Shown: positions 6,374 to 24,003 of the stretch, in pieces | Layout: each line of letters begins with the position of its first letter | Position numbering within the stretch: the stretch's first letter is position 1 | Origin: Clostridiales bacterium PH28_bin88 | Lineage (GTDB): Bacteria > Bacillota > PH28-bin88 | DNA length: 64,000 nucleotides | Reading direction: 5' to 3' | Assembly (NCBI GenBank): GCA_000987045.1 | Contig: LAKY01000049.1 | Span: 37,735-101,734, forward strand | Made by a program: the position numbers and the translations under genes | Notes under the pieces: model-generated | Told to the model about the DNA's origin: nothing | Databases searched by the model: none | What the model saw: only the letters and a program-made list of their open reading frames with translations

Positions 6374-7816
6374 TTAAGAAAAATGTTGGATTAGGATGCT
6401 CAATACGGGAAAACAAAGAGGGACCAGCCCGACCGGCCTGTCCTCTTCCCAGCCTTTTAAAATGCGGTACATCTCATCCTGGCGGGAAGCCATCACCTGT
6501 TGCCATTCCTTGATGCCCTTGTATTCCTCTCTGAAATGTTCCTGATCCTGTCTGATAAGATACGTGTAGGTCACAACCGGTGACGATACCGGCAGGTGGC
6601 GCAGTTTGGACCATGCGCCGGCGCCGTCCAGCGCCCCGGCCCCTGCTTCCACAGGGTTAAAGTGATCAATTGGGCGTGCGCCGGCGATAATGGCCTGTTT
6701 GATAGAAGCAGGCGACGTCTTTAGACCAGACCTGGAGGCACTGTCCAGAAGAAGGGCGACCACGCCCGCCGTGTGGGCGGATGCGATACTGGTCCCCTCT
6801 ACCAGGGAGTAACCGGTGCCCTTCCAGGTCGGGAAGGTGGAAACAGCGCCTCCCGGGGCAATCACTGTAGGTCCCATCATCCCATCCTGCCTGGGCCCCA
6901 CGGAACTGAAGTACCACAAGGTCTCGCGGGGCACCTGGTAACCGTAGTCTTCCTGCCACATGGCCGGGGATATGTACGCCCCCACGCCGATAGCGCTCCT
7001 GGCATTTCCGGGAGTCGCCAGCGAAGCAAGACCCGGCCCCTTGTTGCCAGCCGCGACGGTAAAAACGACGCCATATTGCTCCGTAACCTTGTCAACCAGT
7101 TGGGTAAGGGTATTGTAACCGGAAGTTAAGTCCCTGTAGTCAGCAAGGCTGAGGTTAATCACCCTCGCACCCGCCTGGGCAGCATAACGAATGGCTTCCG
7201 CCACTTTATCCCAGTCCGACTTCCCGTTTTTGTCGAGAGCCTTAATAACCAGAAGTTGGGCGCCCGGGGCAACACCTTTGACGGTACCGTTAGCGGCCAC
7301 CACGCCAGCAACCTGGGTGCCGTGACTGTTTCCGTCGAACCCCAGGATTACCTCGCGAGCCCCGGTTTTTATCTCACTGATCACGAAGGAAATACCCATA
7401 TTTCCGCTGGAGCCCGGAAAACTGGCGGTTCCCTGGGCTAACCGGTACTCGCGGAGCGGAACCTCGTTGCCCAGGTTCCGGTCACCATCGGTGTCGACAT
7501 ACACCAGGTCAAAACGGCCCGCCTCCCACGGGTCGGTCACTACCACCAGGAACCGGTCTGAAGTTACACCGTTGTTATTCAAGTCCAGTCCAGCTCTGGC
7601 TTCCTCCCAAAACCCGTAATAGAAACTGCCGCTCTGGGAGTACAGTCTTTTAAAGTTATACTGCTGTCCACCAATGGTATAGCTGTCTTGCCCAGAAGCG
7701 ACCCTTTGGCCGTTTAATAATGTGAACCCCATCTTGCCCGATTTTCCATCCACACTTTCCAGTTCACCATAAAAATCATATTTACTTCCAAACTGCTCCA
7801 TCAAGCGGTTGACCAT
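6374..7816 (-). pseudogene. Fragment of an SLH/S8 subtilisin-like protease paralogue; lacks the SLH domains and the Asp-box region and has a divergent C-terminus
   Basis: Aligns to residues of roughly 195-690 of the 10066-13299 protein (MVNRLMEQFGSKYDFY..., GHGTQVAGV, GTSIASAHTAG). The segment carrying IAIIDTGID is missing. Homology stops abruptly near 7850, where a PIN fragment on the other strand begins. Confidence 0.7.
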
Positions 7817-8033
7817 GGCCGCGGCCTCAGCCCTGGTGGCTAACTCGCTGCGGAGGTTGCAAGAGGCCGGATTAACGGCTATGGACGCCCTTCACATATC
7901 ATGTGCCGAAAAAGGTAAAGCCGACGCCTTGCTCACTACCGATGACAAGTTGGTCCGACAGTCTGCGCGAACGAAAGCTCTGATCAAAATCAAGGTAGCA
8001 AATCCGATTAACTGGCTAATGGAGGTGCTTTGA
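7809..8033 (+). pseudogene. C-terminal fragment of a PIN-domain nuclease (copy of 16987-17427)
   Basis: From LQEAGL onward (about 7856) it is near-identical to the C-terminal third of the 146-aa PIN protein. The N-terminal catalytic part is absent. Confidence 0.75.
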
Positions 8034-8239
8034 TGATACAGGATCAAGCCGCAACTCCCAATCAAATCAGGAAAGCCGGGATAGATGCCTTATCTAAAAC
8101 CCTCGGTCCCGTAGGGATGACACGGTTTTTACAGCAGTTCGACCCAGGAAAAGGTGATTATACCAAAGAAAGAGAGCAGTGGCTTGGCGGAATAAGCATC
8201 GAACAGGTCGTCAAAGAGGTTCATCGAGAGATGGATTAA
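8030..8239 (+). CDS. Small protein partnered with the PIN nuclease (putative antitoxin), orphan copy
   Basis: 69 aa, near-identical to 17428-17634. Its start overlaps the stop of the PIN fragment (TGATG). Confidence 0.6.
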   Translation: MMIQDQAATPNQIRKAGIDALSKTLGPVGMTRFLQQFDPGKGDYTKEREQWLGGISIEQVVKEVHREMD

Positions 8240-8352
8240 CCAGTCTTCTGGGGAGCAACTTGGCCTATTACCAGGTCCGAATTTTCGATTTGAAGGTCGG
8301 GATCAGAGAGTTGCCTTGATGCTATGACACCTAACGTATTCTTCTTATGATA

Positions 8353-8386
8353 GGGCTTACCTTTAATTCAAGGGAAAGCCCTTTTC
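8353..8386 (+). terminator. Rho-independent terminator after 8030-8239
   Basis: GGGCTTACC...GGGAAAGCCC stem followed by TTTT. The equivalent structure follows the second copy at 17643-17680. Confidence 0.6.
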
Positions 8387-8589
8387 ACATCGCAAGGAGG
8401 ACCTTCAAGCATAATAACAGTTGCTCCGAATGGGGGAATGCGGTATCGCCCATCCCGTCTGAAGGTTGCGGCTACTGCCGCTGCCGCGAGTGGCCGCCAT
8501 GTTTGTACGCACTGTGCTCAAATTTTATTCGCGCTATCTTCGCCATCTTTAATCACCCACTAAACTTCTATCTTCTATCAAAACTTCTA

Positions 8590-9054
8590 TCGAAACCGCC
8601 CATTCACCTCTCGCCTCTATAGGCGAGAGGATAAATGGGCGGTCGGGCGTTAGCCCGGTAATGTTTGTTGATAATTGCTAAAAGTTGCTGAAAATATAAT
8701 CAGTAACTCATTCGCTAAAGTTCTGGTGTAATAATGAAACTTGACAGCAATTATCATTCAGTGTTCAAGCTGACTTATCACCTTGTCCTGGTGGTCAAGT
8801 ACCGCCGGAAGGTGATTAACGACCAGGTTGCTGCACGCATCAAGGAAATTGGCGAGTATATCGCGCCAAGTTACGCCAAAGGGAAAAGATTGAATCCCCA
8901 TAGTCCTGGCGCACGCGACTTCGTTCTTCTGGGTCAATCGAAAATTTTGCCAGCAGGTAGTAGGTATAAGAATTATGGCTCAACAATCAGTAAATACCTG
9001 ACTATTGAGCCTTTTACGCAAAACTTCCGATTGTCCCCTCTAAGAACCGTCCCG
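8590..9054 (+). mobile_element. Degenerate IS200/IS605-family element (left-end hairpin, truncated tnpA, conserved right-end module)
   Basis: Long imperfect palindrome CCGCCCATT..CTCTCGCC-tctata-GGCGAGAG..AAATGGGCGG at about 8598-8645. A tnpA N-terminal fragment follows, then a module (8839-9054) that recurs at 14283-14437 and 17811-18030. Confidence 0.55.
8734..8880 (+). pseudogene. tnpA: IS200/IS605 Y1 transposase TnpA, N-terminal about 48 aa only
   Basis: MKLDSNYHSVFKLTYHLVLVVKYRRKVINDQVAARIKEIGEYIA matches the conserved YHxVxxxKYRRKV start of IS200-type TnpA. The HUH and catalytic Tyr regions are absent. Confidence 0.6.
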
Positions 9055-9060
9055 ATTCCC

Positions 9061-9399
9061 TTAAACAATTTCAACAAACCCTATTAAAATATCTGCCACT
9101 TCTTTCACGATGTCTTTTGGTGCTTTTTCATAAAAAGATACATTTCTAGCGTGTATGTCTAAAGCTTTTACCTGTTCACATATAATAACTCCTGTTGTTT
9201 TAGTTCTTTCATCCAGTTCTATATGAAGAGGAAAATCTCTGTTTGTGTTAGTAATAGGGCATACCATGGCTATTTTAGTAAATTTATTATAGGAATTATT
9301 ACTAACAACCAATGCAGGTCTTGTTCCTTTTTGTTCATGTCCTGCTTGTGGATCAAATTCTAAAAATACAATATCACCTTGCTCTGGTATATATCCCAT
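9061..9399 (-). CDS. mazF: MazF/PemK-family endoribonuclease toxin
   Basis: YIPEQGDIVFLEFDPQAGHEQKGTRPALVVSNNSYNKFTKIAMVCPITN is the classic MazF/PemK signature. The region is AT-rich. Confidence 0.9.
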   Translation of the reverse strand: MGYIPEQGDIVFLEFDPQAGHEQKGTRPALVVSNNSYNKFTKIAMVCPITNTNRDFPLHIELDERTKTTGVIICEQVKALDIHARNVSFYEKAPKDIVKEVADILIGFVEIV

Positions 9400-9647
9400 T
9401 AAAACACCTCTTTACCCGTTGGTTTTCCAGTATCCCATTCGCTACACGTATAATCTCCTTTATACTCGGCTATTCTTTCTTCTAATGTTTTATGTTTTTT
9501 AACGGGAACAATGACCAGATTGCCATCTATAACTTTTATTTCTACCTTATCATTTTCATTGAGTTGTGCCATTTCAAGAATAGCCTTCGGGAGTCTTACC
9601 GCCTGACTATTTCCCCACTTTTGAATTGTGGTATACATATCCATCAC
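9399..9647 (-). CDS. mazE: MazE/AbrB-fold antitoxin
   Basis: IQKWGNSQAVRLPKAILEMAQL is a SpoVT/AbrB swapped-hairpin motif. Its stop overlaps the mazF start. Confidence 0.85.
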   Translation of the reverse strand: MMDMYTTIQKWGNSQAVRLPKAILEMAQLNENDKVEIKVIDGNLVIVPVKKHKTLEERIAEYKGDYTCSEWDTGKPTGKEVF

Positions 9648-9658
9648 CTCTCACTCGA

Positions 9659-9687
9659 AGTATATACCTTGTATCTACATCTGTCAA
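9659..9687 (-). promoter_or_regulatory. Sigma-A type promoter of mazEF
   Basis: The minus strand reads TTGACA-17 nt-TATACT about 12 nt upstream of the mazE ORF region. Confidence 0.6.
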
Positions 9688-9741
9688 TGATTGTTTTGCC
9701 TTAAAACATGTCTCGGAGTACCAGTCACCATCTCCAATAGG

Positions 9742-9808
9742 CTATCTTTCCTGTTTAATTTTTTCTGCCAACCACAACTTAATCATGGTCTGATAAAGGT
9801 TCCCTTTA
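9742..9808 (-). pseudogene. 3-prime fragment of a BrnA-like antitoxin gene
   Basis: Nucleotide-level copy of the last 65 nt or so of 16155-16484. It is fused at about 9809 to a DUF4258 fragment. Confidence 0.55.
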
Positions 9809-9960
9809 CCTCGGGAGGCAGAGAGAGTTGAACATGTAAAGGTCTTCCCTTCTTTGTTTGACGTAAATAAGGCAGCTTGGTGAATATTTATCTTCAGGAT
9901 ACTCTTCGACAATTTCTCCGGTTAAAATCACTTCTTCTACTTCCAACCTATCGATCGACC
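9809..9960 (-). pseudogene. DUF4258-family toxin fragment (1-nt deletion, 3-prime end missing)
   Basis: Copy of the internal part of 15664-15960 (DRLEVEEVILTGEIVEEYPEDKYSPSCLIY). A frameshift follows, and the C-terminal IVVITIYEPDP part is lost. Confidence 0.65.
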
Positions 9961-9980
9961 TCCGGTGATTGTTTTCAGTG

Positions 9981-10048
9981 CCTGCAAGACACAGGAACCG
10001 TCCCCATGTCTTCTGCCTGCAAGACACCGGGAACCGTCCCCATGTCTT
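9981..10048 (+). repeat. Two tandem units of the GAACCGTCCCCATGTCTT arm motif
   Basis: cctgcaagacacaggaaccgtccccatgtctt followed by ctgcctgcaagacaccgggaaccgtccccatgtctt. Confidence 0.9.
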
Positions 10049-10065
10049 AAGCACAATATGCACAA

Positions 10066-13000
10066 CTAGTTGATGCTAATGGTTATATCCTTGGATGAAG
10101 GGGTAATGGGAAAAGTAACCCGCCCCCTCTGCACTTCCATCACCCGACCGTCAATCTCCAGCACCGTGTCGACGGGACGCAGGGTCTGGGGGTCGCGCAC
10201 CTGGAGGGTGACATAGGTGGGTCTGCCAGGAACCAGTTCCCGGGGAAGCAACCCGATCACCCAGCGAGGCTTAAGGCTGTCCTTTTCATTGATCTCATCC
10301 AGTTGAACAGCCAGTTGGTAAGAAGAAAGGTCTTTGCCGAACAAGCTCAAAGCAGCTGAACTGTACACCACCATTTCCCAGTTGCCCGGCTTGGGATTCT
10401 CCACCGTTTTGGTAACATACCCCTGCACGATAGTGCCCTCAGGTCCCAGGCCGACATAATCGCTCATGATTACTTCCTGCCCGTCGGGGCTGATCAGGTG
10501 AAAACGCACCCGTCCCTCGTACTGGCCCTGGGTCAGCGGGACTTTAAGGCTAAAGGTAGCACGGTTTGTACCCGGGGGAACGCGGAAGAAGTACCTGCGA
10601 TGCTGGCCCGCCTCCAAACCCCCCTCCAGCTCTTGCCGGAAGTCGTTTTGTGGTGTCAAAAGGTACGGTCGAATGACCGTGGACATTAACCTCAATTCCA
10701 TTCCAGGGGTAGTTGGCACTATTCCCTTGATAAAACCTGTGTACACACCCGGTTCATCCGGTACCTGGTACTCCAATGCCACCCTGCGGTTAATACCGGT
10801 TGGCAGCAAGGTCTGGCGCGGCACTGTACGCATCCATGGAACCATGGTTTCCCAGAAAACTGTGATGGGTTCGTTTCCCTGGTTAACCATGTTATAGGAC
10901 AACTGCCCGGGGATAAAATCCCTGGCGTACAGCCCTTCCCCCATACCTAATTGGCGGTTATAGGTATAAGCTACGACCGGAGAAGTAGGAGGGAGGTCAC
11001 GCAACTTGGTCCAGGCAGCGGCTGCATCCAGCGCCCCGGCGCCTGCTTCTACAGCATTAAAATGCTTAATCGCGCGTGCCCCGGAGATAATCGCCTGTTT
11101 AATAGAAGCGGGTGAGACATTAAGTTTCGACCTGGAGGCACTGTCCAACAACATGGCGGCCACCCCTGCCGTGTGGGCGGCAGCAACACTGGTCCCCTCT
11201 ACCAGGGAGTACCCGGTCCCCATCCAGGTGGGAGAAGTGGAAACAGTGCTGCCCGGGGCCACCACCGTAGGTCCCATCATCCCGTCCTGCCGGGGCCCTA
11301 CGGAACTGAAATACCACAAGGTCTCGCGGGGCACCCGGTACCCGTAGTCTTCCAGCCACATGGCCGGAGAGATGTACGCCCCCACGCCGATAGCGCTCCT
11401 GGCATTTCCCGGGGTCGCCAGGGAAGCAAGCCCGGGCCCCTTGTTGCCCGCCGCGACAGTAAAGACGATTCCATTTTGTGCCGAAACCCGATCCACAAGT
11501 TGGGTGAGGCTGTTGTAGCCTGAAGTCATGTCCTGGTAGTTGGCGAGGCTGAGGTTAATGACCTTCGCCCCCGCCTGGGCGGCATACCGGATGGCTTCCG
11601 CCAACCTGTCCCAGGCCGCCTGCCCGTTTTTGTCCAGGGCTTTAATAACCAACAGCTGCGCTCCTGGGGCAACGCCTTTGACGGTACCGTTCGCGGCAAC
11701 CACGCCAGCAACCTGGGTACCGTGCCCGTTTCCGTCAAAACCCAGGACTACCTCACGCGCCCCGGTTTTGATCTCGCTGATGACAAAAGATACACCTGTT
11801 GCCTGGCCGGTAGAAGGGAAGCTGGCTGTTCCGCGGGCCAAACGGTACTCGCGCAGCGGGACCTCGTTGGCAAGGTTGCGATCACCATCGGTATCTACAT
11901 ATACCAAGTCATAACGGCCCGCTTCCCACGGGTCGGTTACTACCACCAGGAACCTGTCCGAGGTTGAACCGTTACCATTTAAGTCTACGCCGGCCCTGGC
12001 TTCTTCCAGGAATCCGTAACGGAAATTCCCGCTCTGGGAGTACAATCCCTTAAAACTGTACTGCTGACCGCCAATGGTATAGCTCTCATGACCGGACGGC
12101 AAGGTTCCGGCAGTCGCCACACGTCCCTCGTCAGTATAGTCTTTAAAGTCAACCACCTTGCCCGAACCTGTGCTGGTAACCTGCAGGTCCGGGTGGGTAG
12201 GATCAATCCCGGTGTCAATAATAGCAATAAGCACACCCCGGCCGTCGGCGCCGGTAAGGGAGGCCAACTTGCTGGCACCGGCTTCCTGTTTGGTGATCTC
12301 CAGGCTCCGCCCCGGGGATGCTGCCGATAGCTCTCCCGAGGCGCTCACTATCTCTTCTCCGAGCTTACGGGTATAATTTGTTGCTTCAGAGCTAAACCCA
12401 GCCGCCGAAGAGGACCACTTCAGTTGAACAGCGTCATCCAGCGGTGCGGTCAGTACCTGGACAAAAGTGGCGGCACCCTCCGAGTCCAGATTAACAAAGG
12501 CGGGCCGGGGTAGGTCCTTCGCTGCATCTTCCAACCGGGCAGGCTGACCGCCGAGATAAGTTTTGGCCTTTGCAGAAAGGTTCACCTCGACCCTTTGGCC
12601 GTTTAATGTAAAACCAATCTTGCCGGATTTCCCATCCACACTTTCCAAGTTGCTGTAAAAATCATATTTAGATCCGAACTCATCCATCAGGCGGTTGACC
12701 ATTGCCGCAGCTTCGGCCCTGGTGGCCAGCTCACGAGGTCGAAAGGTATTGTCGGGGAACCCCCCTACCAGCTTTCTTTCAGAAGCAATCGTGATGTCAT
12801 GCTGTGCCCATGCCGGAATCTGAGCCGCATCTGTATAAGCCGGGAGCACACCGCTTTGTCCATCAATTCGCAGCGCCCGCACCAGCATAGTGGCCATGTC
12901 CATCCGGCGGATATAGTCCCCCGGGCGGAAGCTGCCGTCGTCAAACCCCCGGATAATGCCCAGTTCATAAGCCAACTGAATATATCCCCTGGCCCAGTGC

Positions 13001-13299
13001 TCAGCCCCCACGTCCCTGAAGACAGACGGCACAGTTTCCAGCGTCCAGACCTCGTCCTCCGCACCCAGGGCTTTAATGAGGATCTTGGCGAACTCAGCCC
13101 TGGTCACGTAATTTTTTGGCTGGAAAGCGCCGTTGGTATAGCCGTCGATTACCCCGTGACTGGACAGTAGATCTATATCAAGTTGCGCCCAGTGGCCTTT
13201 GACGTCTTCGAAGGCCAGGGCAGAACCAGCAACGAGAAAAACATAACCTGTCAAACAAAAAGCCAGGAAGAAGCCAACAAATGCAATCCGGCGTTTCAT
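10066..13299 (-). CDS. Cell-wall-anchored subtilisin-like (S8) serine protease with three N-terminal SLH domains
   Basis: Signal peptide, SLH repeats, Asp box IAIIDTGID, His box GHGTQVAGV, Ser box GTSVAAAHTAG, and a long C-terminal beta-rich region. Confidence 0.9.
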   Translation of the reverse strand: MKRRIAFVGFFLAFCLTGYVFLVAGSALAFEDVKGHWAQLDIDLLSSHGVIDGYTNGAFQPKNYVTRAEFAKILIKALGAEDEVWTLETVPSVFRDVGAEHWARGYIQLAYELGIIRGFDDGSFRPGDYIRRMDMATMLVRALRIDGQSGVLPAYTDAAQIPAWAQHDITIASERKLVGGFPDNTFRPRELATRAEAAAMVNRLMDEFGSKYDFYSNLESVDGKSGKIGFTLNGQRVEVNLSAKAKTYLGGQPARLEDAAKDLPRPAFVNLDSEGAATFVQVLTAPLDDAVQLKWSSSAAGFSSEATNYTRKLGEEIVSASGELSAASPGRSLEITKQEAGASKLASLTGADGRGVLIAIIDTGIDPTHPDLQVTSTGSGKVVDFKDYTDEGRVATAGTLPSGHESYTIGGQQYSFKGLYSQSGNFRYGFLEEARAGVDLNGNGSTSDRFLVVVTDPWEAGRYDLVYVDTDGDRNLANEVPLREYRLARGTASFPSTGQATGVSFVISEIKTGAREVVLGFDGNGHGTQVAGVVAANGTVKGVAPGAQLLVIKALDKNGQAAWDRLAEAIRYAAQAGAKVINLSLANYQDMTSGYNSLTQLVDRVSAQNGIVFTVAAGNKGPGLASLATPGNARSAIGVGAYISPAMWLEDYGYRVPRETLWYFSSVGPRQDGMMGPTVVAPGSTVSTSPTWMGTGYSLVEGTSVAAAHTAGVAAMLLDSASRSKLNVSPASIKQAIISGARAIKHFNAVEAGAGALDAAAAWTKLRDLPPTSPVVAYTYNRQLGMGEGLYARDFIPGQLSYNMVNQGNEPITVFWETMVPWMRTVPRQTLLPTGINRRVALEYQVPDEPGVYTGFIKGIVPTTPGMELRLMSTVIRPYLLTPQNDFRQELEGGLEAGQHRRYFFRVPPGTNRATFSLKVPLTQGQYEGRVRFHLISPDGQEVIMSDYVGLGPEGTIVQGYVTKTVENPKPGNWEMVVYSSAALSLFGKDLSSYQLAVQLDEINEKDSLKPRWVIGLLPRELVPGRPTYVTLQVRDPQTLRPVDTVLEIDGRVMEVQRGRVTFPITPSSKDITISIN

Positions 13300-13511
13300 A
13301 CCGATAACCCCATTTCAACCCGTCCTGTCAGAATCAAAGACATCTGTTTAATTCTTCACAAGGCGCTGTTCTCCTCTTACCGGGCCAGGAAAAATATTGG
13401 GAATAACCCCATTTCTTATTAAACGCTAAAGAAAACTCGGCTTGCGCTAAAAAGACTTGCCCATTTATGGGATTAGTCGCGTTGATGCCTCCACAAAGGA
13501 ATAGCCAATTT

Positions 13512-13712
13512 CTAGGTGCGGAAGCCTAGTTGCACAAAAATATATCGGCCTAATCCGCTCTGACCATAAGCATAGTATCTTCCATCCCGGCCTTTGCGAA
13601 TCAGGGGCTGACGATAGAAAACTTCTTCTACCTCTTCTACGCTAATACCTTGGCGCACAGGTTTCCAGTAGTGATTTAATTTCATAAATTCACATTCAAG
13701 AACCGCCCCCAA
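13512..13712 (-). pseudogene. BrnT-like (DUF497-type) toxin, C-terminally truncated copy
   Basis: YWKPVRQGISVEEVEEVFYRQPLIRKGRDGRYYAYGQSGLGRYIFV matches the 16444-16727 copy. It then diverges and lacks the ...RPITARGMTDDER end. Confidence 0.5.
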
Positions 13713-13860
13713 TGTGTTTTTCTAGACAGACAAGATGAAGAGAGCCGAAGCTCTCCTTTGGAAAGGTTTGTGCGGACGATCCCACTACCTGTGCAAGACA
13801 GGAGAACCGTCGCCATGTCTCCCATGTCTCCTGTCTCCCCAAAACTTCCGATTGTCCCCT

Positions 13861-14133
13861 CTAAGAACCGTCTCCTGCGTTAATCGCATAATGGAGCATC
13901 ATTCGAATAAATGCAGTATAACCAAGTCCATGTTTTCTGGCGACCCTCTTAATAGCCACCAAGTCTTCCTTCGGGATCCTAACAGTAATGTGAACCATTT
14001 CCGGCCTTTCAAACTCTATTTGGCTATCTTGCCATTCTAGTTCTTCTGTGTCTATACTGTCAAAGTACTCTGCCATCTCCTCAACACCAGCAAACTTTGG
14101 CATCTGTCTGTTATTGTTTTCTCCTTCCATCAT
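13861..14133 (-). CDS. BrnA/CopG-like RHH antitoxin
   Basis: C-terminus ITVRIPKEDLVAIKRVARKHGLGYTAFIRMMLHYAI resembles BrnA antitoxins (isiRl...K..A...G.gYQt). It lies downstream of a toxin fragment. Confidence 0.55.
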   Translation of the reverse strand: MMEGENNNRQMPKFAGVEEMAEYFDSIDTEELEWQDSQIEFERPEMVHITVRIPKEDLVAIKRVARKHGLGYTAFIRMMLHYAINAGDGS

Positions 14134-14154
14134 AGCGCCTCCTTTCAGAAGTAG

Positions 14155-14282
14155 TCATATCTCTTGCGTAACCGGATAGATGATACCATGACCTTCGTAG
14201 ATGAAAATAAAGGTTATGTACCTGCCTTCACCCGTTTTACCCAGGAAGCGATATGCTTTTTCCTTCGGGTTGCGATCAGCTA
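14155..14282 (-). pseudogene. C-terminal fragment of a BrnT-like toxin, truncated by the 155-nt repeat module
   Basis: KEKAYRFLGKTGEGRYITFIFIYEGHGIIYPVTQEI. The upstream part of the track ORF (14283-14373) is repeat-derived. Confidence 0.5.
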
Positions 14283-14437
14283 ATCCCCATAGTCCTGGCG
14301 CACGCGACTTCGTTCTTCTGGGGCCAATCGAAAATTTTGCCAGCAGGTAGTAGGTATAAGAATTACGGCTCAACAGTCAGAAAACACCTGACTATCGAGC
14401 CTTTTTGACGGGCAAAACTTCCGATTGATCCCTGTAC
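14283..14437 (+). repeat. Copy b of the conserved IS-associated module
   Basis: About 155 nt, near-identical to 8885-9054 and 17857-18030. It includes the hairpin GGCTCAACAGTCAG-aaaacac-CTGACTATCGAGCC plus TTTTT. Confidence 0.9.
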
Positions 14438-14461
14438 GAACCGTCCGCAATAACCCATAGT

Positions 14462-14761
14462 TTAGGAGTGCCAGGCACCATCCGACCCTTTTAAGTAAAT
14501 CGAATCAGGACAGATATCCAGAATTCTACCGTCCAACTCCCAGGTAATTGCTCCGTTTCCTTTGGAAATGAACACACGCTTGAATTTGTTCCAATCCTTT
14601 AAGGGTTCAAAAACTCCATATAGTTTGTCCTTCATATGGTATTTCCTTATTTCGCCATTATTAAATTCCACGACAAGTGTGTAATCGGGCCTGGCTTCAA
14701 CTCTGGTAGCCTTCTTTATTCCGGTTTCGAAATACTTCTTGGCAATAGCAATCTCGTCCAT
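14462..14761 (-). CDS. DUF2442-family protein
   Basis: VEARPDYTLVVEFNNGEIRKYHMKD...FEPLKD...ITWELDGRILDICPDSIY fits the DUF2442 pattern. Confidence 0.7.
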   Translation of the reverse strand: MDEIAIAKKYFETGIKKATRVEARPDYTLVVEFNNGEIRKYHMKDKLYGVFEPLKDWNKFKRVFISKGNGAITWELDGRILDICPDSIYLKGSDGAWHS

Positions 14762-14773
14762 CTTTCTTCACTC

Positions 14774-15034
14774 CTATTTTAGACCTTCAATGGGGAATAA
14801 TTCCTGATTTTTCGAAGCCAAATTCCACTCTTCAAAAAGCTCTTCTTGATGCAACGCCGCCCACCCTAAGACCATCTTTTCAATCTTGTTTGGAAGTTTA
14901 CCATGTAGTATTTCCAGTTCTCTTATATCAACTACCGCTTCTTGACCGGCATACTCAGCATGAAAATGTGGAGGCAAATGGTCTTCCCAGTACATGTAAA
15001 TCTTAATGCCTCTAAACTGGCAGATTATTGGCAA
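14774..15034 (-). CDS. DUF4160-family protein
   Basis: FRGIKIYMYWEDHLPPHFHAEYAGQEAVVDI is the DUF4160 signature. It is paired with a downstream DUF2442 gene, as is usual. Confidence 0.75.
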   Translation of the reverse strand: MPIICQFRGIKIYMYWEDHLPPHFHAEYAGQEAVVDIRELEILHGKLPNKIEKMVLGWAALHQEELFEEWNLASKNQELFPIEGLK

Positions 15035-15175
15035 TGGCTGTTACCTCCTTTTCTTGCCTTATTTTCTATTATACCATAAAAACTAGTGGAAACAACAAAT
15101 CCCTCCACGGCTCTACGGCCGGGGCGCCAAAAGGAAAAGGGATCCGCCCGAAGTCCGAACCCCTTCCCCTGTAAT

Positions 15176-15243
15176 AACCTTCCCCATGTCTTCCTCAATG
15201 TGTTTCCTGCCTGCAAGACAGCGGAACCGTCCCCCTTGTCTCA
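15176..15243 (+). repeat. Solo arm motifs of the GGGGAC-hairpin family
   Basis: ttccccatgtcttcc ... cctgcctgcaagacagcggaaccgtcccccttgtctc. Confidence 0.8.
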
Positions 15244-15400
15244 ATCGCCTCAAACAAGCCATAATCGCCGAAAATGGAACTTGACAAAATGGTGTGATGG
15301 TGTTCTCGCTGGGAGAGGTGTAAGAAATAATCCTGAGGATGGCCTCGAAACTATTGATTTAACAAGGGGTTGTATTTTTCGGCAATGGCTCTAAGGAGAA

Positions 15401-15658
15401 TTAAGGAGTACTAGGCACCGTCCCTCGTTTTTTCTGGCTATAATCGAAAACCGGTACCATAACCTTTTTCACTGGCTTATATTCCTGCTTCGCAAACTTC
15501 AGCAACATGTCCGTAACATCACAAGAATAAGTTCTCTCCCCGCATTTAGTGCAAACATCAGCAGGTACATTTTCCACAAAAATATACTTTCCGTCATCTT
15601 CATAACTAAATGTTACAGTTCGCTTTTCGGTTTTACCTCCGCAGAAAACACACTGCAT
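15401..15658 (-). CDS. YgiT/MqsA-type zinc-finger protein (putative antitoxin)
   Basis: CVFCGG...VENVPADVCTKCGERTY is a four-Cys YgiT-type finger. Confidence 0.7.
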   Translation of the reverse strand: MQCVFCGGKTEKRTVTFSYEDDGKYIFVENVPADVCTKCGERTYSCDVTDMLLKFAKQEYKPVKKVMVPVFDYSQKKRGTVPSTP

Positions 15659-15663
15659 AGCAA

Positions 15664-15960
15664 TTACCTCCTGATTTTATAGTCAATCCACTGTCCAGGA
15701 TCAGGTTCATAAATTGTAATAACTACTATCCTGGGAGGCAGAGAGAGTTGAACATGTAAAGGTCTTCCCTTCTTTGTTTGACCGTAAATAAGGCAGCTTG
15801 GTGAATACTTATCTTCAGGATACTCTTCGACAATTTCTCCGGTCAAAATCACTTCTTCTACTTCCAACCTATCGACCTGTCCCCATGTCTCTATAATGGT
15901 TCTCCCGAACCGTTGACATGACATGACTAGATCAACGGAATTCCATTGTATTAAAAACAT
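15664..15960 (-). CDS. DUF4258-family protein (putative toxin); N-terminus partly repeat-derived
   Basis: LEVEEVILTGEIVEEYPEDKYSPSCLIYGQTKKGRPLHVQLSLPPRIVVITIYEPDPGQW. The codons ETWGQV upstream are the gagacatggggaca repeat motif, so the true start is uncertain. Confidence 0.6.
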   Translation of the reverse strand: MFLIQWNSVDLVMSCQRFGRTIIETWGQVDRLEVEEVILTGEIVEEYPEDKYSPSCLIYGQTKKGRPLHVQLSLPPRIVVITIYEPDPGQWIDYKIRR

Positions 15961-16154
15961 CAGACTCTTTCAATTCACATTGAAGAAACATCCCCAATAT
16001 GCTGTTATTTTCAATCCAGTAACTGTTTTGAATGATAAATGAAGATAATTTCTATAATTCCCGTTTTTTTTAACCGGTAGACTATCCGAAATGGGTGAAG
16101 TAAGACATGGGAACTGTCCCCTTGTCTCCCTCCCAAAGTATTCTGTCTTTCCCC

Positions 16155-16484
16155 CTATCTTTCCTGCTTAATTTTCTCTGCCAACCACATCTTGATCATG
16201 GTCTGATAAGGGATCCCTTTACCCTCGGCGATTTTTTTTATTTGATTTAGATGCTTACTGTTGACCCGTATGTTTATTCTTGTAGTAGTGGGCCTTTCCC
16301 CTTCCATCTCGAAATCTACCGGCTCCAGTTGATTCCAATATGGTGCTGTGGAATGCGTTTCCCAATATTCGGCCGCCTGCTCGTCATCATGAATTCGGGG
16401 CATCTCAGGCACATTTTTCTTTTCTGGAAAGTTTTCTCCTTTTCTACCCACGTTGATGCTCCCTCCTGTAGAGTTTTCTTTCAT
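16155..16484 (-). CDS. BrnA/CopG-like RHH antitoxin
   Basis: INIRVNSKHLNQIKKIAEGKGIPYQTMIKMWLAEKI matches the BrnA C-terminal pattern. Confidence 0.6.
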   Translation of the reverse strand: MKENSTGGSINVGRKGENFPEKKNVPEMPRIHDDEQAAEYWETHSTAPYWNQLEPVDFEMEGERPTTTRINIRVNSKHLNQIKKIAEGKGIPYQTMIKMWLAEKIKQER

Positions 16485-16727
16485 CGTCAGTCATTCCCCT
16501 GGCAGTGATTGGTCTGATTATTCCTCTACCCTTGTACACAAATACCACAAAAATATATCGCCCTAATCCGCTCTGACCATAAGCATAGTACTATATCTTT
16601 CATCACGTCCTTTGCGAATCATGGGCTGATGATAGAAAACTTCTTCTGCCTCTTCTACGCTAATACCATGGCGTACAGGTTTCCAGTAGTTTGCTTCGTC
16701 CCATTTAAACGTCCTGCCCTTCAACAT
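16444..16727 (-). pseudogene. BrnT-like toxin with an internal frameshift (about 5-nt insertion)
   Basis: MLKGRTFKWDEANYWKPVRHGISVEEAEEVFYHQPMIRKGRDERY, then a stop. The shifted frame continues YAYGQSGLGRYIFVVFVYKGRGIIRPITARGMTDDERKLYRR. It overlaps the brnA-like start. Confidence 0.6.
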
Positions 16728-16986
16728 CAATTACCCCAACACCGCTGTACGTACATTGTACCCACGCATAAGACATTTGTCAACAACCAGCAGAAAGACA
16801 CTTCTTTGAAGTTATGAAGTTGTCTGTGACTTAATTTCGAAATTCACATTCAAGTACCGTCCCCATGTCTCCTCACACTCAACAATTTCTTTATTTTATT
16901 GGGATATGGATATGGAAAAGCTTCAGCGAAAGTACTATAATATAATAAGTAGAAGGGTTGACCCTGATTGAGGGGAATGACTTTTC

Positions 16987-17427
16987 GTGAGAATCTATCT
17001 TGATGCTTGCTGTCTCAACCGCCCTTTTGACGATCAGACCCAAGACCGAATCAGGTTGGAATCGGAGGCGGTTCTTTCAATTTTGAACCGTTGCCAGATG
17101 GGAGAATGGCAATTAATAGGCAGCGAAGCCCTAGATTATGAAATATTCAAGATACCGGATGATGACCGTAAGCAAAAAGTATTGATCCTCGCTGGTCTTG
17201 TCCAGTCGAAGGTATTCCTTGACGTAAAGGTGGTGCAACAGGCCAACCTGTTGCAGGAGGCCGGGTTAGCGGCTTTAGACGCCCTTCACATATCATGTGC
17301 CGAAAAAGGTGGGGCCAACGCCTTGCTTACTACTGATGACAGGTTGGTCCGACAGGCTGCGCGAACGAAAGCTCTAATCAAAATCACGGTGGCAAATCCG
17401 ATTAGCTGGCTAATGGAGGTGTTTTGA
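16987..17427 (+). CDS. PIN-domain nuclease (146 aa, GTG start)
   Basis: MRIYLDACCLNRPFDD... and ...LDALHISCAEKGGANALLTTDDRL show PIN-like acidic residues. Confidence 0.7.
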   Translation: MRIYLDACCLNRPFDDQTQDRIRLESEAVLSILNRCQMGEWQLIGSEALDYEIFKIPDDDRKQKVLILAGLVQSKVFLDVKVVQQANLLQEAGLAALDALHISCAEKGGANALLTTDDRLVRQAARTKALIKITVANPISWLMEVF

Positions 17428-17634
17428 ATGATACAAGATCAAGCCGCAACTCCCAACCAAATCAGGAAAGCTGGGATAGATGCCTTATCTAAAACCCTCG
17501 GTCCCGTAGGTATGACACGGTTTTTACAGCAGTTTGACCCAGGAAAAGGTGATTATACTAAAGAAAGAGAGCAGTGGCTTGGCAGAATAAGCATTGAACA
17601 GGTCGCCAAAGAGGTTCAGCGAGAGAAGGAGTAA
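17428..17634 (+). CDS. 68-aa partner of the PIN nuclease (putative antitoxin encoded downstream)
   Basis: The ATG follows the PIN stop with no gap. It is near-identical to 8030-8239. Confidence 0.55.
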   Translation: MIQDQAATPNQIRKAGIDALSKTLGPVGMTRFLQQFDPGKGDYTKEREQWLGRISIEQVAKEVQREKE

Positions 17635-17642
17635 AAATAAAT

Positions 17643-17680
17643 GGCCTTACCCTCAATTCAATGGGAAGGCCTTTTTTTTT
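17643..17680 (+). terminator. Rho-independent terminator
   Basis: GGCCTTACCC...GGGAAGGCC stem followed by T9. Confidence 0.75.
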
Positions 17681-17810
17681 GATAAGGTGGACCTTTTCGT
17701 CTTAGAGGTACCAGACCCTCCCGCCATTTACCAGGGTGTTCTTTTGTCGAATTTTTGGATTATCAGGTACCATTCTTTACGCGCAAGGGGAACCGTCCCC
17801 ATGTCTTCAC

Positions 17811-18030
17811 ATCAAGGAAATTGGCGAGTATATCCCGCCAAGTTACGCCAAAGGGAAAAGATTGAATCCCCATAGTCCTGGCGCACGCGACTTCGTTCTT
17901 CTGGGCCAATCGAAAATTTTGCCAGCAGGTAGTAAGTACAAGAATTACGGCTCAACAGTCAGTAAACACCTGACTATTGAGCCTTTTTGACGGGCAAAAC
18001 TTCCGATTGATCCCTGTAAGAACCGTCCCC
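17811..18030 (+). repeat. Copy c of the IS-associated module (includes tnpA codons IKEIGEY...)
   Basis: Near-identical to 8839-9054. It starts immediately after a gaaccgtccccatgtcttcac motif. Hairpin plus T5 at 17949-17988. Confidence 0.9.
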
Positions 18031-18791
18031 AGTGTCTCATGCACGGTCTGCCGTCCCCATGTCTTTGTAGACAGGAGAACCGTCCCCTTGTCTCCCAACT
18101 GTATCCATATCTTTCTAGATACTTCATCAATACCTTCCAGGCTGCCGTAAAAATCGTATTTTGTTCCATAAATATGCATCATTCGGTTGACCATAGCTAC
18201 GGCCTCAGCTCTAGTGGCTAGATGACGAGGGCGAAAGGTTTTGTCGGGGAACCCCCCTACCAGCTTTCTTTCAGAGGCAATCGCGATGCTTTGCTGTGCC
18301 CAAGCCGGAATTTGTTCTAAGTCTGCGTAAGCTGGTAGTACGGAGCGTTCTTCTTCAATCCGCAGGGCCCTCACCAGCATAACGGCCATGTCCATCCGGC
18401 GAATGTTTTCATTCGGCCGAAAGGTTCCATCGTCAAACCCCCTGATCATGCCTAGTTCGTAAGCGAGTTGAATATAACCCCTTGCCCAATGCTCGGCTCC
18501 CACGTCCCCAAAAACGGAAGGTACCGTTTCTAGAGCCCAGACCTCGTCCTCCATACCAAGCGCCTTAATTAGGATTTTGGCGAACTCTGCGCGAGTTATG
18601 TTATTTTTAGGTAGGAAAGTACCATTAGGATAACCGTCAACTACCCCCTGACTAGAAAGCAAGTCTATATCAAGCTGAGCCCAATGACCCTTTACGTCAT
18701 CAAAGGCAAGGGCAGCACCAGCAATACTAAACGTAGCACCAAGCAAACATAAAGAAAGGAAAAGACCAAGAAATATGAGTCTACGAGTCAT
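17952..18791 (-). pseudogene. N-terminal (signal peptide plus three SLH domains) fragment of an SLH/S8 protease paralogue
   Basis: Aligns to residues 1-225 or so of the 10066-13299 protein. Homology ends near 18095, where the reading frame runs into GGGGAC-family repeats. Confidence 0.7.
18017..18100 (+). repeat. Cluster of three GAACCGTCCCC-type arm motifs
   Basis: gaaccgtccccagtgtctc, ctgccgtccccatgtctt, gagaaccgtccccttgtctcc. Confidence 0.85.
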
Positions 18792-18895
18792 AATAAGCTC
18801 AACCCCGTCTCAAATAGTCTCAGCAAATCAAAATACATCTGTTTAATTCTTCATCAGACACTTTTCTCCTTTTATCAGGCTGGGAAAAATATTGA

Positions 18896-18938
18896 CAAAA
18901 AAGAAGGGCTCCAGGTAGAAACCTGAAACCCCTCTTCT
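18896..18938 (-). terminator. Probable terminator of the S-layer gene
   Basis: The minus strand shows an imperfect stem GAAGAGGGGTTTCAGG / CCTGGAGCCCTTC followed by T6. Confidence 0.5.
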
Positions 18939-18975
18939 ACTCGCCTCCGGTATTTCCTGTCCGGAAATTCCTTGG

Positions 18976-21546
18976 TTAGTTCTTGATGATGAGGTAGCGC
19001 AGGATGTTGTTGGTGTCGGACATTTCGGATCCGTCACCCTTGTCGATCGGGGTCAGAGAGTTGACCTTGTTGCCTTCAAAGATTTCGTCGAAGGCGATCG
19101 TCTTGGGCGTACCGGTCACGTCGTAGAGCTGAGTATCGCTGTTGACAAAGTACCATTCTCCGCCGATCTTAACAGCCTTGCTGCTGTAGTTGATTTCCTC
19201 AACAGTGTAAACAGTGTTTGACACGTCAATCTTGGTCACACTGGTGAGGTCGGTGCCGCTGGCCTGGAAGGTCACGAAGCTCTTGTAAGCAGAGTTAGTG
19301 TAACCAGCCGTCTCATCAACATCGTCGGCGTCGTAACGGGATACGGTGCCGTTCACGTTAAGCTTCAGGTAGTAGCCGTCAGCATCCCTACCCTTTTCTT
19401 GAACGACCGCGAACTTAGCCGCAGCAGCCGGGTTGCCAGAGAGTACCAAGTACTGCAGGTCTACACCGTCAGCCTTGAAGTAGTAGTAGGCATTGGCACC
19501 GTAAGTCTTCAACTCGGTCCAGTTGGAAACCTTCGGATCGGAAGCAACGTTCTTGAAGATTACGGTGCTGTCGGTCACGTTGTAGAAGGTTCCGTTGAGT
19601 TTCACGCGCTTGTTGTCGGTGTCGTAGCCGCCTACGTTACCATCGCTGGTGTTGGCATCCAGGATTTCAAGATTGTCGATGGCGCCATCGCTGGTGAGGT
19701 CGTACTTCACGAAGTAGCCCTTAACGATTTCGGCTACCGCGGCAACATCGTCACCGTCGTAAACAGTGCCGCCAACAGTCTTGATATTACTGTCAGCATT
19801 GACAGTGTAGGTCACCTTGCTGCCGTCGCCCAGTAAGAGCTTCACGTTGGCCAGGATGTCATAGGCAGCGCCGCCCTTGTAGACGAGGTCACGGCCGCGG
19901 ATAACGCCATACTGCTTGCTGGCAGCGCCGGTGTTACCTTTTACGAATTCGACATCGCCGTTGCTGTTCAGGGTCAGGGTAACAGCCTTGCCAAGCAGGC
20001 TCTCGAGGTCAGCCGTCATGGAAGCATTGGACTTATAGGTTTCGCCGCCGTCCAGAGAAACTATTGTCCGCTGAGCGGTGCCGTTGCTGGTGGCGAGTTC
20101 GTACTTGGTACCAGTTACCTTAATCCTCCAAGCACTGTCGGAGTCGTATTCCATGGACTCGAGGGTACCTTCTACCTTCTTGCCGCCGATGGTGACCTTG
20201 TAGTCAAGACCTTCGGCAGTGTTAGGGGAAATGCTAATGGTGTCGCCAGCCTGGATGGCGTCGAAACCAACTTCCTTGCCGCCCTTGAAGATCTTGTAGA
20301 CAGTCTCGTCGTCGCTGGCGTCGGTATTGAAGTTAGCCAGGTTAGCGTTCGTAGTTCCGGAAACAACAGTGATCCGCTTGGTGGTGGTGTTCACGCTCTT
20401 CACAATACCCGGTTGTGTCCCAGGGCTGCCCAGGCCGATGTAGTAAACCTGGTTGTCCTTGTTGAACTGCAGGGTGATGCTCGGAGCTTCGAGAGCGTAT
20501 GAGTAAGTACTACCACTTACAGTCAGAGTCCCCAGGCTTCCGGAGAGAATAGCATTGGTGGCCACAGTATAAGTCTTGTCGTCGTTCTTAACCTTAAAGC
20601 CACTGTTGGTCCCGCTGACAAATGCGCCAGTACCTTCCAAGGTGGCAGTAGCGTAGTCACTATTGCTCTTATCTTGTTCAGTGTCCTTCACTACGGTGAA
20701 ATCCTGAACGGTGGCAACAGCCACTTCGCCGTCCTTGTTGAGAACGAAGTCAACAAACTTGTTCTTCAGGCCATCGATGTTGCTTGCACCTGCGAAAGTG
20801 ACGGTCTTAGCAGCCTTCTTAGAGCCGCCAACGTAGCTGATGGTGTATTCGCCGTTACTTACGGTCCAGCCAGTCACGAAAGCGTCATCAATGACAGAAC
20901 CCTTGTAGTTCTTAACAACCAACTTTTCGGCCGGGGTCTTCCCGTCAACAAAGCTGTCGGTGTCTTTGTCGTACTTGACCCAGTTTTGGTCTAGTGTTGC
21001 GTCAACAATAGCAAACACATCGCCACGTACCGAAGGAGCCTTGGCATCGAAGCTCAGGTCATCGGTAATCCCAAGCTCAACGGCCTTTGCGAGGTAATCT
21101 ACCGGCCAACTGCCAGGTAGGTTGTCGTTGTAGCCAAGGATGCGCAGTACGACTGTCAGAACCTCGGCGTAGCTGATTTTGTCGTTGGGACGGAAGGTAC
21201 CAGCAGGATCGCCCTTCACAAACCCTTTTGCAGCTGCCAGGTTAATCCAACCAGTATACCATTCGCCGGTCTTAACGTCGCTGAACTGGGAAGGAGTATT
21301 CTTCATCAGGTCAGCAGCTTCTTTTAGACCTGCAGTCACTATTGCAACTTTAGCAAATTCTGCACGAGTAATGTTCTTGTCTAGGCCAAAGGTCCCATCG
21401 GGATACCCTTCAACGATTCCCATCGCGTTCAGCTTAGTAGCGGCGTTTTCTTGAATGGTAGCCGCGCCAGCCGTCATGGGAACAGCCAAGCTGAGAACGA
21501 AGGTTAGTGCGACGATTAGAGCGATGAGTTTCTTGTGGCTCTTCAT
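18976..21546 (-). CDS. S-layer protein (three N-terminal SLH domains, large Thr/Gly/Asp/Val-rich body)
   Basis: Signal peptide ending AGA. SLH repeats are present (GIVEGYPDGTFGLDKNITRAEFAKV; FSDVKTGEWYTGWINLAAAKGFVKG). The acidic low-complexity body is typical of S-layer proteins, and there is a long upstream untranslated region. Confidence 0.8.
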   Translation of the reverse strand: MKSHKKLIALIVALTFVLSLAVPMTAGAATIQENAATKLNAMGIVEGYPDGTFGLDKNITRAEFAKVAIVTAGLKEAADLMKNTPSQFSDVKTGEWYTGWINLAAAKGFVKGDPAGTFRPNDKISYAEVLTVVLRILGYNDNLPGSWPVDYLAKAVELGITDDLSFDAKAPSVRGDVFAIVDATLDQNWVKYDKDTDSFVDGKTPAEKLVVKNYKGSVIDDAFVTGWTVSNGEYTISYVGGSKKAAKTVTFAGASNIDGLKNKFVDFVLNKDGEVAVATVQDFTVVKDTEQDKSNSDYATATLEGTGAFVSGTNSGFKVKNDDKTYTVATNAILSGSLGTLTVSGSTYSYALEAPSITLQFNKDNQVYYIGLGSPGTQPGIVKSVNTTTKRITVVSGTTNANLANFNTDASDDETVYKIFKGGKEVGFDAIQAGDTISISPNTAEGLDYKVTIGGKKVEGTLESMEYDSDSAWRIKVTGTKYELATSNGTAQRTIVSLDGGETYKSNASMTADLESLLGKAVTLTLNSNGDVEFVKGNTGAASKQYGVIRGRDLVYKGGAAYDILANVKLLLGDGSKVTYTVNADSNIKTVGGTVYDGDDVAAVAEIVKGYFVKYDLTSDGAIDNLEILDANTSDGNVGGYDTDNKRVKLNGTFYNVTDSTVIFKNVASDPKVSNWTELKTYGANAYYYFKADGVDLQYLVLSGNPAAAAKFAVVQEKGRDADGYYLKLNVNGTVSRYDADDVDETAGYTNSAYKSFVTFQASGTDLTSVTKIDVSNTVYTVEEINYSSKAVKIGGEWYFVNSDTQLYDVTGTPKTIAFDEIFEGNKVNSLTPIDKGDGSEMSDTNNILRYLIIKN

Positions 21547-22783: not shown

Positions 22784-22813
22784 TCCCACTTCTAACCTCT
22801 CACTTCTCACTTC
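22784..22813. repeat. Tandem heptamers (minus strand GAGAAGT x3-4) filling the LCP-tagA spacer
   Basis: cccacttctaacctctcacttctcacttct. Confidence 0.8.
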
Positions 22814-23794: not shown

Positions 23795-23804
23795 CCCCCA
23801 TTTT

Positions 23805-23833
23805 GTGACTGGCTGCTAGTGACCGGTGACTAT
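23805..23833. repeat. Heptamer-type repeats (GTGACTN)
   Basis: gtgactggctgctagtgaccggtgactat, directly upstream of the LCP RBS. Confidence 0.7.
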
Positions 23834-24003
23834 GGAGACATGGGGACTGGAGACATGGGCGAGACATGGGGACGGTTCCATCGTCTTCCCGATTAAGGAA
23901 TGGGGACACACCTGCTGAAGCCCGGGCTGGTCTTTGGGGACAGGAATGTCCCCAACTATGCTTCGCTACGCTCCGGGGACAATCGAACCGTCCCCATGTC
24001 TCC
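23834..24003 (+). repeat. GGGGAC-hairpin palindromic element, full form with extra left-arm units
   Basis: gagacatgggg x3, then GGGGACGGTTCCATCG...central module...GGGGACAATCGAACCGTCCCCATGTCTCC. Confidence 0.9.

Follow-up and report, generated by a model that had tools for sequence, protein, structure and literature searches.

A conserved non-coding module in a toxin-antitoxin island of Clostridiales bacterium PH28_bin88 is probably the orphaned tail of an IS91-family insertion sequence

Several insertion sequences (ISs) are known to insert into repetitive extragenic palindromic (REP) sequences, including ISPpu9 and ISPpu10 of the IS110 family and IS1397 and ISKpn1 of the IS3 family, and some IS91-family entries in ISfinder carry an integrase-like open reading frame (ORF). 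In IS91, IS801 and IS1294, oriIS is situated downstream of tnpA, at the right end; it carries subterminal palindromes and borders on the GTTC/CTTG target. The left end, terIS, has a single palindrome and a cleavage site, GTTC/CTCG; no target duplication is formed (PMC13181058). For ISPpu9, another report describes copies inserted into REPs (PMC12288879). Here we analyze a 64,000-nt stretch of the genome of Clostridiales bacterium PH28_bin88 (contig LAKY01000049.1, positions 37,735 to 101,734; hereafter, the window), in which a non-coding module with a conserved hairpin occurs in three copies and a short fourth piece, designated c1 to c4, all within 9.5 kb and in one orientation. The initial annotation had assigned the first copy to the right end of an IS200/IS605 remnant at 8590-9054. 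Our comparisons make it very probable that the module is what remains of the tail of a rolling-circle IS of the IS91 family, orphaned in this genome, and that it does not belong to the neighbouring IS200/IS605 remnant.

The identity of the module was recognized from other genomes. In a relative of the window's organism (genome G002, contig C54), the module lies approximately 140 nt after the stop codon of a 382-aa ORF that matches Pfam Y2_Tnp (E = 5.8e-63) and Zn_Tnp_IS91. It is also found at contig ends in that genome, as is usual for repeats present in multiple copies. When one genome per species was scanned for the terminal 32-mer of the module, at least 100 stretches were obtained from across the Bacillota, and from these we analyzed 80 loci with 82 sites. 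The carriers of the 32-mer include Paenibacillus, Syntrophomonadaceae, Desulfosporosinus, Clostridia, Halanaerobiales, relatives of Bacillus and a few metagenome-assembled genomes (MAGs) labelled Desulfovibrionaceae. At 24 of the 82 sites, the gene of an IS91 transposase (58-67% identical) ends approximately 280-330 nt upstream of the module on the same strand, and 12 of these 24 are complete elements with a conserved left end 2.5-2.9 kb upstream. About six sites contain short derivatives without genes, resembling MITEs (miniature inverted-repeat transposable elements), in which the left end is combined with the module; solo modules like those of the window occur at 13-19 sites, and 31 sites are located at contig edges and are uninformative. 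Thus, wherever the context is intact, the module is an IS91 tail: it is indeed the conserved end of a mobile element, as had been annotated, but not the right end of an IS200/IS605 element.

The transposase scored 442 bits on the NCBIfam model of the IS91 family (NF033538). A tyrosine recombinase gene lies upstream of it in all 12 complete elements, and the product falls among the Xer/integron-integrase-like proteins of NCBIfam, below the cut-offs. The parent element is approximately 2.6 kb in length. Its left end, AGAAGAACGAAATCGC-N4-GCGATGG, is a small terIS-like hairpin; the tyrosine recombinase gene, the gene of the Y2 HUH transposase and a tail of approximately 280 nt come after it in this order. 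The window module corresponds to the last 165-185 nt of this tail, and c1-c3 align over their full length to the tails of complete elements with 74-78% identity. Within the module, the left end recurs as an inverted near-copy, and there are also a long-range foldback, the covarying hairpin with T5 behind it and a terminal block, CAAAACTTCCGATTGnnCCCTnTAA, that is nearly invariant. Four Rossellomorea marisflavi copies show no differences over the stretch from the left end up to and including ...GAACCGTCCC, and the sequence outside them differs, which indicates that the module travels with the element. The two ends of the element differ in sequence, that is, there are no terminal inverted repeats. 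In three genomes a right end is joined directly to a left end (CCCCTTAA followed by AGAAGAAC, or ...CCCCTTAA followed by AGAAGAACGAAATCGC); these abutted junctions fit a circle junction or tandem copies alike. By analogy with described family members, the transposase-distal end of the parent would be oriIS, and the hairpin and the terminal block would be what the transposase recognizes.

We next consider where the parent inserts. At every retrieved site, GAAC (GTTC in the complementary strand) comes after the element end, ...CCCTnTAA; this tetranucleotide belonged to the search pattern. The last 11 nt of the module (the core, GAACCGTCCCC as read on the + strand and GGGGACGGTTC on the other strand) are likely to be target DNA, with insertion next to GTTC (bottom strand) in the GGGGACGGTTC core. 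In many copies, the left flank has the form GGGGACGGTTC-T-arm-loop-arm' right before AGAAGAAC. When the left flank was joined to the right flank from GAAC onwards, REP-like palindromes were rebuilt at about two-thirds of 33 sites, either as long GGGGACGGTTC...GAACCGTCCCC hairpins or as short hairpins with the core in the loop (for example, at loci L120, L087, L061, L180 and L083). This suggests that the element inserts beside the GTTC of a conserved core. An inverted core was found within 70 nt in 24 of 78 distinct left flanks, compared with one of 78 for the direct orientation. Direct repeats do not flank the elements, with the exception of an 8-nt repeat at L081, and complementary palindrome arms were found in 15 of 32 elements (complementary words of at least 6 nt across the element, compared with 7% after shuffling). 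It is possible, although less likely, that the core is element DNA and that insertion takes place at the tip of palindromes of any kind. However, the abutted end-to-end junctions lack the core, the addition of the core to the flank gives perfect long palindromes again with an offset of 0-1 nt, and plain core hairpins are abundant and also flank a gene resembling those of REP-associated tyrosine transposases (RAYTs). Under the preferred reading of the core as target DNA, the parent would insert without target duplication directly beside GTTC on the bottom strand; with respect to the GAACCGTCCCC core of the REP-like palindromes, this position is 5' of GAAC.

Some further arrangements were observed around these elements. 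In the R. marisflavi chromosome (CP033051, 678-740 kb), 13 of 23 GAACCGTCCC words lie within 60 kb, so that the four IS copies and the target hairpins are regionally concentrated rather than dispersed. A Peptococcaceae MAG (LADO01000057, locus L033) has at 1830-2550 two inverted modules approximately 550 nt apart, which form a large foldback. The DNA just after GAACCGTCCC(C) is often repeated in tandem, with two to four units of 8-12 nt (for example, CTTGTGCATAC four times), both by IS91-type elements and by plain hairpins; such units were seen at L038, L049, L074, L028, L088, L033, L062 and L097 and in the window at 13804-13840. They may reflect slippage or re-initiation at the nick site.

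All four window copies are on the + strand. The first, c1 (8876-9043, with the core reaching 9054), is best read as a relic of the last 170 nt or so of an IS91-family element, that is, of its transposase-distal, oriIS-side tail, and is 74-76% identical over its full length to the tails of complete elements such as L098, L041 and L088. It contains the inverted near-copy of the element left end (8915-8930), the hairpin (8977-9011), the T-run (9012-9015) and the terminal block CAAAACTTCCGATTGTCCCCTCTAA (9019-9043); the adjacent half of the target core, GAACCGTCCCG (9044-9054), would be target DNA, not element DNA. The left cut of c2 (14282-14437; core, 14438-14448; hairpin, 14367-14401) lies 18 nt further in than that of c1, and the profile alignment starts at model position 103 of 271 for c2 and 70 for c1. 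The relic c3 (17848-18019; hairpin, 17949-17983) is followed by its core (18020-18030) and then the REP arm TGTCTC. Only the terminal 25-nt block is present in c4 (13840-13864; core, 13865-13875), which is 100% identical to c1 over 33 nt and is preceded by a REP and short tandem CATGTCTCC repeats; the same minimal unit occurs at L026, L027 and L093. The module is thus 165-185 nt long in c1-c3, and c4 retains the last 33-35 nt only. The pairwise identities are 92.9% for c1 and c3, 90.9% for c1 and c2, and 96.4% for c2 and c3. Each full copy has the hairpin GGCTCAACAGTCAG-loop-CTGACTATTGAGCC (also GGCTCAAC...GTTGAGCC) with its T-run (8977-9015, 14367-14405 and 17949-17988) and the block CAAAACTTCCGATTGnnCCCTnTAAGAACCGTCCCC downstream, as had been described. 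When the whole assembly of the window's organism (approximately 5 Mb in 99 contigs) was searched with the module, CAAAACTTCCGATTG was found at the four window places only, a confinement far above chance, and the sole trace of the module outside the window was one decayed fifth relic on contig C51 (3455-3520), a right-end tail with a degraded core. The copies lie in an AT-rich island (42-44% GC, compared with approximately 58%) that contains many other internal duplications.

The places given for the copies by the initial annotation were accurate within a few bases, and the recurrence of the last 35 nt or so, at 13840-13875, was confirmed; however, 37 nt of what had been taken as c3 (17810-17846, equivalent to 8838-8874) belong to a Y1 transposase stub, joined to the module at the same junction as in c1. 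At 14282, c2 adjoins a small ORF on the minus strand, namely its 3' part (14155-14282), so that the module is joined to coding DNA as reported. This piece was too short for Pfam to confirm the BrnT identity proposed for the ORF; the label depends on the CopG/BrnA-type neighbour only.

The hairpin was evaluated in an alignment of 42 distinct sequences. Compensatory changes were present in 10 of 11 pairs, which bears out the structure proposed for it. Cells of the hairpin were paired in 88% of cases, compared with 72% in shuffles, and the covariation score was 0.456, compared with 0.174 for shuffles and 0.03-0.14 for slid partners. In the window the stem is followed by T4-5 on the + strand, and the terminator scan flags the minus-strand reading; the consensus of the family shows T5 behind the stem on the transposase-sense (+) strand. 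In the parent, the hairpin with its T-run probably terminates the recombinase-transposase transcript. It does not end the module, as had been stated, since 43 conserved nt lie downstream. The module as a whole folds back, with GTTCTTCTGGGCAATCGAAAATTTTGC pairing with GCAAAACTTCCGATTGnCCCnnTAAGAAC (DNA fold z = -4.3 for c3 and -1.8 for c1), and the left arm of this foldback opens with the inverted near-copy of the element left end, GCGACTTCGTTCTTCT (15/16). A search of Rfam with positions 7000-20000 at E<=1 gave no match overlapping any copy, and nothing relevant was obtained for the left-end loci of relatives. A tRNA or tmRNA 3' end in 'GATTGAATCCCC...TGGCGCA' was also considered, and was rejected by inspection and by the lack of an Rfam match.

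No Y2 transposase was detected in the window's genome, either by tblastn or by a Pfam search of all six frames. Therefore, the window copies are orphaned relics, not elements. Besides the C51 relic, the only other IS91-type trace is a left end on contig C91 (170320-170360), a 14-nt fragment between REP arms. Near the window copies no left end was found; the sole AGAAGAACGAAGTCGC matches there are the module's own inverted internal block. Two of the copies, c1 and c3, belong to a larger duplication: 8838-9053 and 17810-18029 are 93.6% identical, the upstream stretches 7856-8239 and 17250-17634 are 91.9% identical, and both copies come after the same PIN-partner toxin-antitoxin (TA) pair. Given this common upstream pair and the common tnpA/module junction, c1 and c3 are two copies of one segment and not two insertions. 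The copies differ by 4-9%, as do their co-duplicated flanks, so that there is no sign of recent mobility or of special selection; with c1 and c3 in one colinear duplication and the cognate transposase gone from the genome, the earlier suggestion that the module is recently mobile does not hold. A single larger segmental duplication accounts for c1 and c3 only. The genomes of the same family are too diverged at the DNA level for an empty-site comparison.

We propose that one or two old insertions took place in the AT-rich TA island and that their left parts were lost by deletion. One deletion would have joined the relic to the truncated Y1 tnpA. The relic would then have been copied locally by segmental duplication or recombination, which would have given c1 and c3, probably c2 from c3 and c4 from c1; we infer that the deletion and duplication events occurred in this order. 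The copies would now be inert, or at most incidental terminators for the convergent operons that they abut.

The sequence to the left of c1 is of a different kind. Positions 8590-8874 do represent an IS200/IS605-type left end and a Y1 stub, as had been recognized. The left-end palindrome CCGCCCATT...AATGGGCGG, annotated at about 8598-8645, was found at 8596-8642 (47 nt, + strand; 88% identity over 50 nt to its own reverse complement by BLAST) and is directly followed by a small second hairpin (8642-8659, +). The 5' stub of the Y1 (IS200-like) transposase (8734-8874, +) matches Pfam Y1_Tnp (E = 1.7e-8; model positions 1-39 of 121), comprises 47 codons rather than the 48 originally counted, and is cut off at the junction with foreign DNA. 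Its closest relative, with 70% amino-acid identity, is the intact TnpA on contig C62 of the same genome, which is part of a complete IS605-type element (22600-24430) with a tnpA of 143 aa and a tnpB of 365 aa, the sole TnpB gene of the genome. The ends of the C62 element are unlike both the window's left end and the module, and the genome-wide search yielded no parent IS with tnpA and tnpB that bears the module. Pieces of the query were found in three of four family genomes, with the left end and the module at separate places: homologues of the left end (77-83% identity) occur in two relatives (G002:C5, G003:C46 and G003:C70), where the module was never found beside them and other sequence comes after the left end. 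Two gene-less elements were observed among these homologues. In one (L018, G002:C5, 1930-2340, minus strand), the left-end homologue is fused to approximately 200 nt ending in GGGGGTAGTTCAC; the other (L019, G003:C70, 60-170 and 900-1100) is similar, likewise ends in GGGGGTAGTTCAC and is partly N-masked. Since the C62 tnpB element, too, has GGGGGTAGTTCAC at its right end, these elements resemble palindrome-associated transposable elements (PATEs).

The hairpins into which the parent appears to insert are numerous in the window's genome, in which GAACCGTCCCC occurs in 59 copies, compared with approximately two expected, with the consensus arms (A)GACA...TGTCT. Two element-free REP-like hairpins (AAGACAnnnGAACCGTCCCCATGTCTT) lie at 9987-10050, and further REP-like hairpins have their cores at 13804, 15224, 16111, 16854, 17790 and 18077, all on the + strand. 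In the island (9044-18087) all 13 GAACCGTCCCC cores are on the + strand, and one comes after almost every TA pair; elsewhere in the window (23868-26590 and 49782-49899), the cores form inverted doublets approximately 117 nt apart or 21-nt tandem arrays (26530-26590). On contig C15 (approximately 7900-9000) there is a 263-aa RAYT-like gene, with a Y1_Tnp domain (62 bits) and a C-terminal HTH, that lies between two upstream AGACAGGGGGACGGTTCCTCTGTCT hairpins and a third, decayed one downstream, of the same family as those in the island. This arrangement corresponds to the layout of REP/RAYT systems, and the Y1 protein is a putative mobilizer of the hairpins.

The island itself (approximately 7850-18100) is bordered by two fragments of an SLH/S8 protease paralogue, the C-terminal one and the N-terminal one. 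Their overlap is 112 nt with 73% identity (7731-7842 and 18109-18220), and a full paralogue is located inside the island; the paralogue regions are 6374-7846, 10066-13299 and 17952-18791. Within the island, 9742-10050 and 15199-16223 share a mosaic of a BrnA fragment, a DUF4258 fragment and a hairpin. In the second copy, the counterpart of each block is shifted to the left, with its strand unchanged, and such a permutation does not result from a simple duplication and one deletion. Two Xer-like genes lie approximately 8 kb to the left of the window. We considered an integron attC reading of the hairpins and rejected it, because the R''/R' consensus does not match and an integron integrase was not found in the island. 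The one-way cores after TA pairs, the integron-integrase-like recombinase of the parent and the permuted island blocks led us to a speculative and quite improbable reading, in which the island is a Gram-positive counterpart of an integron array, with cassettes that recombine as single strands and have GAACCGTCCCC hairpins as their boundaries. In such an array, the recombinase-carrying IS91-type element would be the engine or a dedicated parasite, and the module relics would mark former docking sites.

Other explanations of the module were weighed against an IS91 tail. An assignment to the IS200/IS605 element before c1, as its right end or as a guide region of the omega-RNA type, seemed natural from the adjacency of the module to the left end and tnpA stub at c1 and c3, from the hairpin-rich ends of IS200/IS605 elements in general and from the related intact tnpA-tnpB element in the genome. 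Apart from the chimeric c1/c3 junction, however, the module was never found with Y1 or TnpB genes and consistently comes after IS91 transposases. The left-end homologues of relatives continue into other sequence, the right end of the C62 element, the genome's one TnpB element, is unrelated, and Rfam gave no match at E<=1. In addition, the paired ends of IS608-type elements have similar hairpins, whereas the left-end and module hairpins are dissimilar here. We therefore regard this assignment, and the omega-RNA-like relic that had been suggested, as having almost no chance of being correct. Alternatively, the module could be an independent non-autonomous foldback of the MITE or REPIN (REP doublet forming a hairpin) type, moved in trans by the RAYT-like Y1 protein or by an outside IS91 transposase, and each window copy would then be an insertion of its own. 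It is a foldback with core-like sequence near both ends (GCGACTTCGTTC at the left and GAACCGTCCCC at the right), and the left arm at locus L073 is joined to a perfect inverted core. Other genomes often have solo modules (13-19 of 82 sites), and many of these begin at model positions 116-119, the base of the foldback; the window's genome has a RAYT-like gene with matching hairpins, and the contexts of c2 and c4 are unlike those of c1 and c3. Nevertheless, the left boundaries of the solo modules are scattered over model positions 49-235, and the window copies begin 25-40 nt outside the foldback. The common tnpA-stub junction and upstream duplication of c1 and c3, the confinement of the copies to 9.5 kb in one direction with 4-9% divergence, and a total of five relics in 5 Mb compared with 59 plain REP cores also make independent mobility very unlikely. 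The earlier proposal of a MITE-like derivative is accordingly right for the gene-less combinations of left end and module in other genomes, but not for the window copies, which lack a left end, have variable boundaries and are clustered.

It is also possible to imagine that the relics have been co-opted, with the hairpin kept as a (bidirectional) terminator or RNA-stability element of convergent TA operons. Each full copy lies directly 3' of a minus-strand operon, namely mazEF for c1, DUF4160/DUF2442 for c2 and an SLH fragment for c3, and the hairpin was flagged as terminator-like by the scan, with T5 on the + strand in the family consensus; an incidental terminator role is therefore possible. 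However, a function in the transposon accounts for the covariation of the hairpin, the T-runs in the minus-strand tails are poor (GTAATTCTTA), and conservation between copies is the same as that of the duplicated flank (92-94% for both). In a search for RNA evidence, the stretch was found in two sequencing runs only, both of metagenome DNA. Retention for such a function seems unlikely.

Several points weigh against the IS91 tail interpretation itself. The 82 sites were picked by the terminal 32-mer, so that the invariance of the terminal block and the constant right end are partly due to the construction of the set; covariation of the hairpin and conservation of the left half were not forced by the search pattern. 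Beside this constant right end, solo left ends were found as well in a scan for left ends. No copy in the window's genome is attached to a transposase, and therefore the parentage rests on homology (74-78%) to elements of other genomes. The ori/ter assignment and the cleavage positions come from family analogy and from junction sequences with an ambiguity of 1-4 nt, because A and GAAC occur at both junctions. The three left truncation points fall within approximately 20-30 nt (c1 and c3 versus c2), which is a possible hint of a non-random boundary, and c2 is nearer to c3 than c1 is, which is unexpected under a simple duplication history. Finally, the copies may have a present function.

For the window, the result is a correction: what was supposed to be the relic of an IS200/IS605 right end or guide RNA becomes the debris of an extinct IS91-type element, and no omega-RNA is to be expected. 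The relics themselves are ordinary, and the hairpin-specific targeting of the parent is the mildly new part. A widespread IS91-family lineage with a tyrosine recombinase appears to insert in Bacillota at one exact position by the GTTC of the GGGGACGGTTC core. This would extend the 4-nt IS91 target rule to a structured 11-nt site, and would link two single-strand (HUH) mobility systems, in that the IS91-type element and the RAYT-type Y1 protein share hairpins. It also provides a defined substrate (the 25-nt terminal block, the hairpin and the GTTC core) for the biochemistry of IS91-type origin recognition. The literature that we searched, which did not extend to ISfinder, contained no report of an IS91-family member with REP specificity and nothing specific on these motifs or on an IS91 element with a recombinase.

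When compared with IS91, IS801, IS1294 and their ISCR relatives, the parent is alike in its transposase (NF033538, Y2_Tnp and Zn_Tnp_IS91), in the absence of terminal inverted repeats and of target duplication, in the hairpin end downstream of tnp that abuts GTTC, and in the small palindrome with GTTC at its left, terIS-like end. It differs by the extra tyrosine recombinase gene present in 12 of 12 complete copies, by the 165-185-nt foldback right end containing an inverted copy of the left end, and by a target that would be the 11-nt core GGGGACGGTTC in REP-like palindromes and not a bare tetranucleotide; in the window, tail relics alone remain. The right ends of IS200/IS605 elements and TnpB omega-RNAs are similar to the module in being hairpin-rich, non-coding and on the 3' side of a transposon, but the module has no link to TnpB and is unlike the right end of the genome's own IS605-type element. 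In REP/BIME-RAYT (TnpA-REP) systems, short palindromes with a constant core flank a single gene of the Y1_Tnp and HTH type, and the last 11 nt of the module are alike in this respect, with 59 copies in the genome, whereas the module itself is not a REP. Finally, the parent resembles the REP-inserting ISs ISPpu9/ISPpu10 and IS1397/ISKpn1 in its apparently site-specific insertion into repeated extragenic palindromes, although these use DEDD or DDE chemistry and the parent encodes an HUH Y2 transposase.

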